Source: Pseudomonadota bacterium
Lineage (GTDB): Archaea > Thermoplasmatota > SW-10-69-26 > JACQPN01 > JAJPHT01
Length of the DNA: 64,000 nucleotides
Assembly: GCA_021325135.1 (NCBI GenBank)
Contig: JAJPHT010000046.1
Coordinates: forward strand, 64,001 to 128,000
Direction: 5' to 3'
The notes beneath the pieces are model-generated. The model searched no databases, was not told where the DNA came from, and worked only from the letters and a program-made list of their open reading frames with translations. Shown piece by piece: positions 36,167 through 38,476 of this stretch. Position 1 is the first letter of the stretch. Every line of letters starts with the position of its first letter. The position numbers and the translations under genes were made by a program.

Positions 36167-38476
36167 CTACTCGTCCTTCTCCTCGTCCTTGGGCTTGATG
36201 TCGCCCAGGAGGGAGACCTCGTCGGGGCCGGTGGGCGTCTCGCCCGCGGGGGCCTCCGCCGCCGGCATGGGGGGCGGGTTGACCGCGGCGAGGGCCTCGA
36301 TGACCTTCTGCTGGGCCCGCTGCGCGCGCTCCTTGATGCCGGGGTTCGCGAAGGGGTTGGGCTTCATCTGCAGGGTCACGGCGCCGGTGCCGAGGCTGAC
36401 GGGCTGGCCGACGATGATGTTCTCGGCGACGCCCTCGAGGGGATCGATCTCGCCCACCATGCCCGCCTCGAGGAGGTGGTTCACGGTGATCTCGAACGCG
36501 GCGCGCGCGAGGACCGAGGACTTCTCGCCCGAGATGCCGTGGCGGCCGATGGCGCGGATGTTGCCGTCCGACGTCATGACGTCGCTCACCAGCATGAGGT
36601 GGCGGATGTCCACCATGAGGCCCTGCTCGCTGAGCGTCTTGTAGGCCTCGTTCATGATGGCGGTGCGCGCGGCCTCGATGCCCAGGACCTCGTAGATCTC
36701 GCGGAAGTTGTTGGTCGTCGTGCGCGTGGTGTCCACGCCGTCGATCTTCATGACCTTCGCGAGGTTGGAGCCTTCGGTGTAGATGATGTAGCCCTCGGGC
36801 TCGCGGCGGATGACGACGCGCTTGATGTCCGCGATGCCCTTGATCTGCATCTTCTTGGCCTCGGCGGCGATGTTCTGGATCGTCTTGTAGGGGCGCTCCT
36901 CGCCTTCGCCGGGGCGCAGCACGATCTTGCCGTCGGGCGTCGTGGCGACGTCGGCGTTCTTGAGCTTCGTGAGCTTCTCCGCGACGTCCTCCATGGTGAG
37001 GCCCTTGCGCTTCATCTTCTTGTCGTCGAGGGTGACGACGACCTGGAACGCGCCCAGGTCGGTGTCCACGTCGGCGATATCAAAAAGATTCGTCGTCTCG
37101 ATCTCGGCCGCGATGCGCTGCACGGCGTCGGGGTCGCTGCGGACGCCCTCCTCCAGGTAGACCTGCATCATGGGGGTCGAGGGGACGCGGCGCGCGTCCA
37201 CGACCTCGATGAGGCGGGGCAGACCCAGCGTGACGTTGATTTCCGCGACACCCGCGTAGTGGAAGGTGCGCATGGTCATCTGCGTGCCGGGCTCGCCGAT
37301 GCTCTGGGCGCCCAGGATGCCCGCCGCCTCGGTGGGGTCGATGCGGTGGACGCGGTACTGGTTCCAGAGGTGCTCGGCGACGCGGCCGATCTGCTCGGGG
37401 TTGGCCTTCTTGCCCTTGAAGGTGAGGATCTTGCCGATGGCGTCCCAGACGACGGCGTGGGGGAGGTCGCCGTTGAGGGCGGCGAGGCGCTCGCTGAAGG
37501 GCTTCCAGACGTTGGCGACCTCGACGATGCGCTCCTTGAGGGCCTTGCTCTCCCAGCCTTGGGCCTTGAGCTCCTTGGCGATCTCGGAGACGACGGGCTC
37601 GGGGAGCTTGACCTTGGCCGCGGCGGCCGCGTCCATGACCTTCTGCTCCTCGGGCGTGATGAGCGTCACGACCTCGGCGTACTCGACGCCCTCGTACTCC
37701 AGGCGCGTGTCGACGAACTCGCCGACCTCGTCCTTGATGCGCTCGGCAAGCTCCTCGCCGATGGCGCTGATCTCCTGGAGGTCCTCCAGCGACGCGCGCT
37801 GCAGGTCGTAGACCGTCTTGTAGCCGGCCTCGATGAGGGCCTCGGCCTTGCTGCGGCCGATGCCAGAGATCTCCATGAACTCCTCGATGGACTCCTCGAT
37901 GTTGATGACCTGGTCCTTGAGGGACTCGGCCAATTCCTCGGAGACCTCGTCGATGTCCAGGAGATACTCGATGGGCGTCCGCTTGATGTCCTCCTTGGTG
38001 CGGAAGCCGTGGCGGTAGAGGCTCTCGGCGATGGGCTTCGTGACGCCCTTGAGCGTCATGACCTCGGCGAGGTCGCCCTCCATGACGGGGACCTCGCTGG
38101 GGAGCGCGGCCTTGATGGCCTGCGCGAGCTTGGGACCGATGCCTTCGGCGCCCGCGATCTGCTGGACCGAGGCGCGGATGAGGTCGTTGACGTCCTTGAA
38201 GCCGGCGTCGTAGAGCGCCTCGGCCTTGCTCTTGCCGATGCCGGGCAGGTCGGTGAACGCCTTGATGGCGGCCTTGCGCTGCTCGGCGGGCGTGAGGGGC
38301 GGAGGCGCGGGCTTCGCGGGCTCGGGCTCGGCGGGCGCGGCGGCGGGCTTCTCCTTCTTGGCCTTGGGCTTGGAGGCCTTCTTGGGCTTCTCCTCGACCT
38401 CGGGCTCCTGGGAGGCGTCCATCTCCATGGCTTCCTCGTACTCCTCGTCGGAGGTGTTCTTCTTCTTGCTGGGCAT
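36167..38476 (-). CDS. rpoA2: RNA polymerase subunit A'' (Rpo1C) with ~330-aa N-terminal extension containing three (HhH)2 modules
   Basis: [45 protein letters not shown] in the C-terminal half. Confidence 0.95.

Follow-up and report, generated by a model that had tools for sequence, protein, structure and literature searches.

The window analysed here is a stretch of 64,000 nt from assembly GCA_021325135.1 (contig JAJPHT010000046.1, positions 64,001-128,000, forward strand), whose source organism is placed by GTDB in Thermoplasmatota; SW-10-69-26; JACQPN01; JAJPHT01. It contains an RNA polymerase (RNAP) operon with the gene order rpoH-B''-B'-A'-A''. The genes upstream of rpoA1 are rpoH (44867-45115), which encodes a subunit without any extension, rpoB'' (43289-44860), and rpoB' (41421-43463, as listed ORF). 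The A' gene rpoA1 (38479..41424, minus strand; 981 aa; NF006336, 1372 bits) lies directly upstream of rpoA2 (36167..38476, minus strand, stop included), the gene for subunit A'' (Rpo1C). A gap of 2 nt separates the rpoA1 TAA (38479-38481) from the rpoA2 ATG (38474-38476), and a GGAGG Shine-Dalgarno-like site (38486..38490, minus strand) is located within the end of rpoA1, 9 nt before that ATG.

As the first-pass annotation had stated, rpoA2 is a single stop-free reading frame of 769 aa that starts 2 bp past the rpoA1 stop. The whole protein scores 472.6 bits on TIGR02389 (cut-off 420.65), identifying it as an archaeal A'' equivalog, and model positions 20-367 match its residues 358-705. No second rpoA2 was found in the genome, which is 94% complete. 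The length of the product is nevertheless far from the typical ~390 aa, as the A'' chains of solved archaeal polymerases measure 391-397 aa, in line with the 380-400 aa that had been assumed beforehand.

Domain architecture

The additional N-terminal part of A'' spans about 320 residues, with the canonical subunit starting near residue 320 (all features described below are on the minus strand). The protein opens with a Lys/Glu/Pro/Ala-rich tail (residues 1-60; 38297..38476) that is predicted to be disordered (pLDDT < 50), AlphaFold extending the disorder over about the first 56-60 residues. Residues 1-65 contain 12 K/R, 15 D/E, and ~13 P, which matches their earlier description as Lys/Glu/Pro-rich. 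Next come three helix-hairpin-helix modules of the (HhH)2 type. In module 1 (residues 63-126; 38099..38290) both hairpins read G-I/V-G and are followed by conserved lysines (K82, K84, and K116). Module 2 (residues 133-191; 37904..38080) has the degenerate hairpins GVT and EVS, and module 3 (residues 193-252; 37721..37900) combines an intact first hairpin (GIG-R-x-K) with a second one reading AIG, followed by acidic residues.

The modules are connected to the rest of the protein by a linker (residues 253-274; 37655..37720) with a conserved YEGVEYAE motif. Judging from the AlphaFold models (pTM 0.37-0.42), in which residues 259-271 form a low-confidence break (pLDDT < 50), this linker is probably the flexible tether of the arm, the break amounting to about 15-20 residues. 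Two LPxxVV modules had been proposed to precede the core. The first holds up as an extra unit: the helical hairpin LP1 (residues 275-320; 37517..37654; pLDDT 83-95) falls outside the alignment to solved A'' chains and is modelled with high confidence jointly with the canonical N-terminal helices, on which it packs. The second (LPHAVV), beginning at residue 338, lines up with the solved chains from about their residues 10-15 on and thus represents the canonical A'' N-terminus itself. We also considered, and rejected, that LP1 might be a copy of the hairpin at the canonical N-terminus, as the similarity is too weak (a local alignment score of 35 was reached in 7 of 500 shuffles, and the hhalign probability was 6%).

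The canonical body (residues 321-705; 36362..37516) includes the trigger-loop region with GEPGTQMT. It is followed by a C-terminal tail (residues 706-769; 36170..36361) that consists of one helix and a disordered Pro-rich stretch with a conserved SLLGDIKP motif. Judged by its confidence values (pTM 0.37; tail pLDDT ~32), the full-length AlphaFold model gives no sign of the arm or the C-terminal motif docking on the core.

Fold and charge of the modules

Pfam HHH_5 (PF14520) matches three stretches of A'', with residues 73-125 as the best one (whole protein E 5.4e-32, 110.5 bits versus a cut-off of 27); of the six hairpins, four match PF00633. A custom module HMM delimits the units as 72-126, 138-191, and 198-252. 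Both agree with the three ~52-aa repeats originally drawn at about 74-125, 139-190, and 200-251, and the six hairpin strings given at the time are all present in the translation. AlphaFold predicts three five-helix domains (helices 63-124, 133-190, and 193-251; pLDDT ~90), as expected for the (HhH)2 fold. Pairwise identity is highest between modules 1 and 3 (51%), followed by modules 2 and 3 (40%) and modules 1 and 2 (30%).

Clear differences exist among the modules. Their net charges are +1, -4, and -8, respectively, a pattern that is kept across 28 homologues, with module 1 being about neutral (net about 0 to +1). The canonical G-h-G is found in three of the six hairpins (m1a, m1b, and m3a), where it is kept in 26-27 of the 28 sequences and followed by a conserved K/R; m3b is mostly AIG, and m2a and m2b are degenerate. 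The proposed division into a motif-intact repeat 1 and more acidic repeats 2-3 is borne out in this form, repeat 1 being near-neutral and the other two acidic or degenerate.

The best Foldseek matches of the arm are NusA AR1-AR2 (on top), topoisomerase V HhH arrays, LigA, RuvA, XPF/Hef, and RadA. With the 381-residue arm as query, no match was obtained at E <= 0.001; with the arm model resembling beads on a string, the E-values are no better than 1e-3 and thus weak. These matches name the fold of the arm and do not rank its functions. The likeness to alpha-CTD, NusA AR, and the RadA N-domain that had been put forward holds at this level of fold (Pfam, NCBIfam, and Foldseek).

Occurrence and selective constraint

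The window's class is a small one of soil and sediment archaea, and the metagenomes that yielded the source organism and its nearest relatives derive from soil, rhizosphere, and mines. At E <= 1e-20, the three-module array was detected in 19 of the 21 species of this class, whereas none of 380 other Thermoplasmatota had it; weaker two-module and one-module forms occur elsewhere in the phylum. The same architecture was seen in 26 further proteins of 691-792 aa (P0003-P0027; some partial).

The dN/dS of module 3, at 0.11-0.16 in the three closest comparisons, is similar to that of the core (0.17-0.21). Modules 1 and 2 are intermediate, LP1 is at 0.4-1.3, and the N-terminal tail at 0.8-1.4 (the tails being near 1); since dS is low (0.1-0.8), probably owing to strong GC3 bias, the absolute values are inflated and serve to rank the regions only. 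Module 3 is the most conserved part of the extension. The sequence of the N-terminal tail evolves almost neutrally while its composition is kept. In a tree of the modules, clustering is by position, which indicates that the triplication is old and that the position-specific module identities predate the diversification of the class.

Integrity of the fusion

An A'' of twice the usual size raises the question of whether the true protein might start internally, with the HhH region being a separate gene or remaining untranslated. The canonical length of 391-397 aa speaks for such an annotation or assembly artefact, as does the fact that long spurious open frames arise in high-GC genomes. Against it, the codons between residues 282 and 399 include no ATG, GTG, or TTG, and M281 is not conserved, so a usable internal start for a canonical-size A'' is lacking; a major protein starting near residue 280, which had been named as a way to overturn the fusion, does not fit these data. 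Neither does a stop or misassembly between the HhH region and the core, as the frame is stop-free and both junctions, array-to-core and rpoA1-to-array, are spanned by independent contigs that other studies obtained from soil and rhizosphere. The purifying selection on the modules, the in-frame arm in the 19 species, and the Shine-Dalgarno-like site and short gap after rpoA1 further argue against an artefact. We give this explanation next to no credence and regard it as in effect already refuted: the arm is almost certainly encoded in frame and translated together with the core.

The metatranscriptome run X20 covers a small share of the stretch, mostly with core pieces from relatives, and gaps in its cover are uninformative. 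One X20 contig runs from the end of rpoA1 into the 'MAKKK...' start of a relative's gene; it was not counted as evidence of expression.

Possible roles of the arm

Helix-hairpin-helix domains usually grip the DNA backbone. The reading that we favour, and to which we assign an even chance, is that the gene encodes the organism's only A'' and that this subunit bears a flexibly tethered arm, with module 1 binding nucleic acid and the acidic modules serving for docking or as spacers. Module 1, with its two intact G-h-G hairpins and conserved lysines, would hold on to the sugar-phosphate backbone of duplex DNA irrespective of sequence, jointly with the basic part of the tail and perhaps also with the first hairpin of module 3. 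We take the canonical A'' N-terminus to correspond to the last helices of the Rpb1 foot, adjoining the side of the enzyme with the Rpo5/H 'lower jaw'. An arm starting there could extend to DNA outside the cleft and would stabilise initiation or elongation complexes, comparable to Rpo13, the topoisomerase V (Topo V) HhH array, and alpha-CTD. The latter acts on UP elements. The (HhH)2 domains of Topo V wrap DNA and serve as a processivity factor (PMC9489208), and the C-terminus of Rpo13 binds downstream dsDNA non-specifically (PMC3479171).

This DNA-binding potential is inferred from motif conservation and analogy. The array is a weaker candidate DNA binder than that of Topo V, since modules 2-3 are net acidic and only half of the hairpins are canonical. 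Modules 2-3 are acidic, lack the DNA-type hairpins partly or wholly, and are connected by nearly continuous helices; the likelier role for them would be that of a rigid spacer or of a surface to which a protein partner docks, as in NusA AR1-AR2.

Taken further, the whole array might be a pure protein-docking platform, in which no module binds nucleic acid in vivo and the arm is a landing pad for a transcription factor or regulator. The acidic AR1/AR2 repeats of NusA bind lambda N and alpha-CTD, and alpha-CTD itself binds activators. The acidity of modules 2-3 and the loss of both hairpins in module 2 are consistent with such a platform, and so are the 46.9 bits of module 2 on the NusA C-terminal repeat, the model closest to it (cut-off 48.15), the position of NusA as top Foldseek match, and the old position-specific identities of the modules. 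Module 3 is under a constraint equal to that on the catalytic core, and that the strongest constraint falls on an acidic module fits a specific protein contact more readily than binding to the backbone. However, it is difficult to account for the canonical hairpins and flanking lysines of module 1, kept in 26-27 of the 28 sequences, unless the ligand is a phosphate backbone, and no neighbouring gene was seen to co-vary. All in all, we consider a pure docking platform rather unlikely.

The ligand of the arm could also be RNA, because the same type of module is present on ribosomal proteins uS3 and eL32 in this lineage. The arm would then bind nascent RNA or pair with the (HhH)2 domain of uS3, linking RNAP to the leading ribosome and coupling transcription to translation. 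uS3 sits at the mRNA entry site, and (HhH)2 domains can heterodimerise, as known for XPF-ERCC1 and NusA AR2-alpha-CTD; kinds related to XPF and NusA are among the fold matches of the arm. In the source genome, the C-terminal end of uS3 is an (HhH)2 domain that shares 31 of 51 residues with A'' module 1 and groups with it in the tree, and eL32 of a congener bears another (HhH)2. On the other hand, Halococcus has uS3-(HhH)2 too, and eL32-(HhH)2 is known from haloarchaea through the solved Haloarcula chains and the NCBIfam model PRK12766. We know of no haloarchaeal A'' with such an arm, and to that extent the ribosomal (HhH)2 fusions do not need an arm on A''. An RNA ligand or a role in coupling seems very unlikely to us.

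Finally, the arm might be an adaptation to ionic strength, a general means of holding RNAP on DNA when salt is high. HhH fusions make chimeric polymerases salt-tolerant (PMC8313265), and among solved structures the nearest homologue is the eL32 domain of haloarchaea. Class-level relatives include MAG SW_10_69_26 (L023), and a Great Salt Lake MAG is among the weaker HhH loci, the saline site or habitat being suggested in both cases by the name alone. The origin of the source organism and its closest relatives in soil, rhizosphere, and mines makes salt adaptation less convincing as a main reading, and we hold it to be highly improbable.

Significance

Our literature searches found no description of an HhH-bearing A''. 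In a term search, the text of a paper on the evolution of archaeal RNAP (PMC13257274) showed no mention of Rpo1C, fusion, or N-terminal extension; the HhH fold paper of Shao and Grishin is among the references cited there.

Archaeal RNA polymerase is viewed as a fixed, Pol II-like core that leaves contacts with DNA and regulators to separate factors. Here, the catalytic subunit itself bears a conserved and flexibly tethered arm of three domains, whose fold serves in other proteins for DNA binding or for the docking of transcription factors. Should DNA or a partner be bound by the arm, this would represent a natural experiment in building accessory functions into RNAP (compare alpha-CTD, Rpo13, and the CTD). 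It also offers a natural precedent for engineered chimeras of polymerases and DNA-binding domains, and the claim is testable with recombinant fragments although the organisms are uncultured.

A broader proposal, more speculative and in our view quite unlikely, is that the A'' N-terminus is an evolvable docking site in Thermoplasmatota with lineage-specific reader or binder modules, and that in this class the arm together with the (HhH)2 of uS3 physically couples RNAP to DNA and to the leading ribosome or a dedicated factor. The modules named in this context are the three (HhH)2 domains described here, two in a UBA202-like group, an HhH with a PUA-like domain elsewhere, and a Marine Group II domain. 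If true, such a site would be for archaea what alpha-CTD or the Pol II CTD is in other systems, and the coupling would add a regulatory layer that is absent from model archaeal systems.

Relation to known systems

Compared with canonical archaeal A'' (4QIW_C, 2WAQ_C, and 2PMZ_C; 391-397 aa), window residues about 320-705 align end to end and the gene likewise follows rpoA1 in the operon, whereas the window protein has ~320 extra N-terminal and ~60 extra C-terminal residues. Topo V of Methanopyrus kandleri is likewise a nucleic-acid enzyme with consecutive (HhH)2 domains strung head to tail, and the resemblance is one of fold (Foldseek probability 0.85-0.96). Its array, however, comprises twelve domains at the C-terminus versus three at the N-terminus here, and two of the three window modules are acidic with degenerate hairpins.

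The alpha-CTD and NusA AR1/AR2 are similarly small (HhH)2-type domains, flexibly tethered to the transcription machinery. In contrast, the window arm is attached to the beta'-like catalytic subunit, which is neither alpha nor NusA, and in sequence it lies nearer to the archaeal HHH_5 type (eL32, Hel308, and RadA). On TIGR01954 (NusA C-terminal acidic repeat), the isolated arm (46.9 bits) and the whole protein (33.4 bits) both stay below the cut-off of 48.15, and Pfam detects no NusA N-terminal, S1, or KH domains in the window A''. Similarly, the whole protein reaches 23.2 bits on PF03118 (alpha-CTD), under the gathering threshold of 23.8; the isolated arm scores 27.1 bits, beneath a far stronger HHH_5 match, and as alpha-NTD is absent the arm does not classify as an alpha-CTD.

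The closest solved sequence is the N-terminal (HhH)2 of haloarchaeal eL32 (1JJ2/1S72 chain Y; E 3.5e-10 to module 3), and PRK12766 is the best NCBIfam domain match of the arm (105 bits). In both cases a module has been added to the core information-processing machinery, although eL32 has a single domain and is a ribosomal protein. Rpo13 of Sulfolobales is another lineage-specific RNAP appendage and a functional analogy for the proposed dsDNA binding (PMC3479171), but it is a separate small helix-turn-helix subunit of unrelated fold instead of a fusion. The A'' N-terminal extensions of other Thermoplasmatota share the attachment point and have at least one HhH-type domain adjoining helical LP units. 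They differ in having a single HhH-like unit, either by itself or combined with beta-rich PUA-like domains; RpoH of the window is canonical (82 aa), and the three-module array on A'' is confined to the window's class.

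Genomic setting and integrity of the fusion

The RNA polymerase subunit A'' of this organism (P0001, encoded by rpoA2) carries a conserved, flexibly tethered, and almost certainly translated N-terminal arm, the three domains of which are differentiated. Its gene closes an RNA polymerase operon on the minus strand, in a window with a G+C content of about 70%. The operon comprises rpoH (44867-45115; 82 aa, canonical), rpoB'' (43289-44860), rpoB' (ORF 41421-43463), rpoA1 (38479-41424; 981 aa), and finally rpoA2 (36167-38476), one uninterrupted frame of 769 aa whose ATG lies 2 nt beyond the rpoA1 TAA and 9 nt beyond a GGAGG. 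The rpoA1 product is longer than its model (883), in part through an acidic tail at its C-terminus, about 45 residues long and abutting the rpoA2 start. The genes usually found 3' of rpoA2 are rpl30e and then nusA. Here, this customary order seems to be broken by an ORF at 35030-36103 (minus strand), directly 3' of rpoA2 and without an NCBIfam match at E <= 1e-5.

The first-pass annotation proposed a continuous in-frame fusion of the HhH region to the polymerase core, and this has held up. No stop or misassembly was found between the two parts, and Logan contigs of independent origin, from soil and rhizosphere studies, span both the stretch from module 3 to the core (37214-37869) and that from rpoA1 to modules 1-2 (37871-38600). 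These contigs represent relatives, mostly 90-95% identical to the window, and their nearby indels are frame-compensating only. A major protein starting near residue 280 is not borne out either: the only in-frame ATG/GTG/TTG codons among residues 240-400 are at 270, 281, and 400, so internal initiation cannot yield an A'' of canonical size, and M281 is not conserved among homologues. Moreover, the genome (94% complete) holds no other rpoA2. That the arm is an artefact, and not genuinely part of A'', is thus extremely improbable.

Structure of the arm and limits of canonical A''

Pfam recognizes three HHH_5 domains in P0001 (E 5.4e-32); four of the array's six hairpins also match PF00633. The AlphaFold model of the extension, built on a 29-sequence alignment, contains a disordered stretch (residues 1-56) followed by three five-helix (HhH)2 domains at 63-124, 133-190, and 193-251 (pLDDT about 90), confirming the tandem repeats and disordered tail first read from the sequence. 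Modules 2 and 3 are connected through two helices with only two residues between them. After a low-confidence break (263-271), residues 275-377 form a confidently modelled helical unit. The full-length model agrees in layout and gives no sign of the arm docking on the core. Foldseek ranks highest NusA (AR1-AR2), the (HhH)2 array of Topo V, LigA, RuvA, XPF/Hef, and RadA, with E-values that are weak throughout because the model resembles beads on a string. The solved domain nearest in sequence is the (HhH)2 at the N-terminus of Haloarcula eL32; Hel308, LigA, ComEA, and NusA come next.

P0001 scores as A'' above the NCBIfam equivalog cut-off, but the match is limited to residues 358-705. Alignments to solved A'' chains (391-397 aa) start at residues 7-17 of those chains, corresponding to P0001 residues 325-337; about 320 N-terminal and about 60 C-terminal residues of P0001 are therefore extra. 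Of the two LPxxVV helical units previously placed ahead of the core, the first (LP1, 275-320) is indeed an extra part of the unit at 275-377, whereas the second turns out to be the canonical A'' N-terminus. P0001 residue 373 aligns with yeast Rpb1 residue 1052, and the canonical N-terminus is the counterpart of the Rpb1 foot end, a part of the polymerase on the side of the lower jaw (Rpo5/H).

The C-terminal tail (residues 706-769; 36170-36361, minus strand) consists of about 60 aa with one helix and a Pro-rich disordered stretch, and its short motif SLLGDIKP is kept family-wide. At this position, eukaryotic Rpb1 continues into a linker and CTD. In P0027, a three-module A'' from a Thermoplasmatota MAG at NCBI, the tail has four tandem DEPFEGPIE-like units of 9-10 residues at the CTD-equivalent position.

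Conservation and distribution

Of the 21 species-level genomes of the class, 19 encode the array in frame with the core; the other two are 72% complete, and one of these has its rpoA2 broken by a contig end. The whole architecture is common to 26 database proteins, which measure 691-792 aa and include partial sequences (alignments A1 and A3). In the module tree, first, second, and third modules each cluster with their own position; the triplication is therefore older than the class, and each position is under its own constraint. Compared by region, since low dS inflates the absolute values, dN/dS is 0.11-0.16 in module 3 and 0.17-0.21 in the core (three closest comparisons), 0.2-0.7 in modules 1 and 2, and about 0.4-1.4 in LP1 and both tails.

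None of the 380 other sampled Thermoplasmatota genomes has the triple array at E <= 1e-18. Weaker relatives in one-per-species genomes include 12 loci with three modules, about 11 with two (about 600 aa; UBA202 among them), and 2 with a single module inside a longer extension. The G[ED]PxTQ landmark occurs in 115 of the best 150 A'' representatives at 50% identity; in 55 of these 115 the N-terminal excess is above 100 residues, and 11 of the 55 show recognizable HhH. Some of the longest representatives are probably unsplit A'-A'' fusions. The A'' N-terminus has thus gained domains repeatedly in the phylum, with the triple HhH array as this class's version. In other lineages (P0032-P0036, P0038, and P0041), the extensions contain a beta-rich domain of about 130 aa, present once or twice (motifs GIIWS... 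and ...SARNYTQI). This domain matches nothing in Pfam at E <= 0.001, and in some cases an HhH-like head and a single (HhH)2 flank it.

Searching the whole genome with the module HMM returned A'' (three modules), uS3 (one), Hel308, RadA, UvrC, and one weak match. The uS3 (C34:1920-3251, minus strand; locus L094), confirmed as S3 by NCBIfam with an additional eL32-type HhH match, has an Ala/Pro-rich linker followed by a C-terminal (HhH)2, in which 31 of 51 positions are identical to A'' module 1. A fusion of this kind also occurs in Halococcus uS3 (L043 and L048). The eL32 of a congener (L093:6636-7514, plus strand) bears an N-terminal (HhH)2, as does haloarchaeal eL32; the position expected for eL32 in our genome lies past the end of contig C34. 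Occurring on A'', uS3, and eL32, the module is thus a portable add-on of information-processing proteins in some Euryarchaeota.

Possible functions of the arm

The modules differ in their hairpins and charge. In module 1, both hairpins read G-I/V-G in 26-27 of 28 sequences, with conserved lysines after each. Module 2 has both replaced (GVT and EVS types) and scores 46.9 bits against the NusA acidic-repeat model, just under the cut-off of 48.15. Module 3 keeps G-I/V-G with R-x-K in its first hairpin, the second being mostly A-I-G followed by acidic residues. Mean net charges across homologues are about 0, -4, and -7, respectively. The contrast drawn in the first-pass annotation, GIG motifs in a basic context in repeat 1 versus acidic repeats 2-3, therefore stands for the motifs and the acidity, whereas repeat 1 as a whole is near neutral.

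Our best reading, to which we give an even chance, is that module 1 leads in binding the duplex DNA backbone while modules 2-3 act as an acidic spacer or dock. Binding by module 1 would be non-specific, with contributions from the basic portion of the tail and perhaps from module 3's first hairpin; modules 2-3 would form a rigid acidic unit that extends the arm or receives a partner. With a tether of about 20 residues and three domains of roughly 25-30 Å each, the arm could reach DNA outside the cleft, provided that the A'' N-terminus lies on the lower-jaw side. Against DNA binding count the acidity of two of the three modules, the fact that an acidic module bears the strongest constraint, and the presence of related modules on ribosomal proteins. 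An arm serving docking alone is a distinctly less likely, yet serious, alternative. RNA binding or coupling to the ribosome is improbable. Slightly less probable still is salt adaptation; the window's organism came from soil, and the partial holders come from soil, rhizosphere, and mine metagenomes.

Literature searches turned up no paper describing an A'' with HhH domains, and public databases name these proteins plainly "subunit A''". Domain and subunit are each known; their arrangement, and its presence in this lineage, had no earlier description in that literature. For the preferred DNA-binding arm there are precedents: the HhH domains of Topo V serve as a processivity factor by wrapping DNA (PMC9489208), Rpo13 attaches to downstream dsDNA (PMC3479171), and tethering DNA-binding domains to T7 RNAP or Phi29 polymerase raises processivity and salt tolerance (PMC12630135, PMC8313265).
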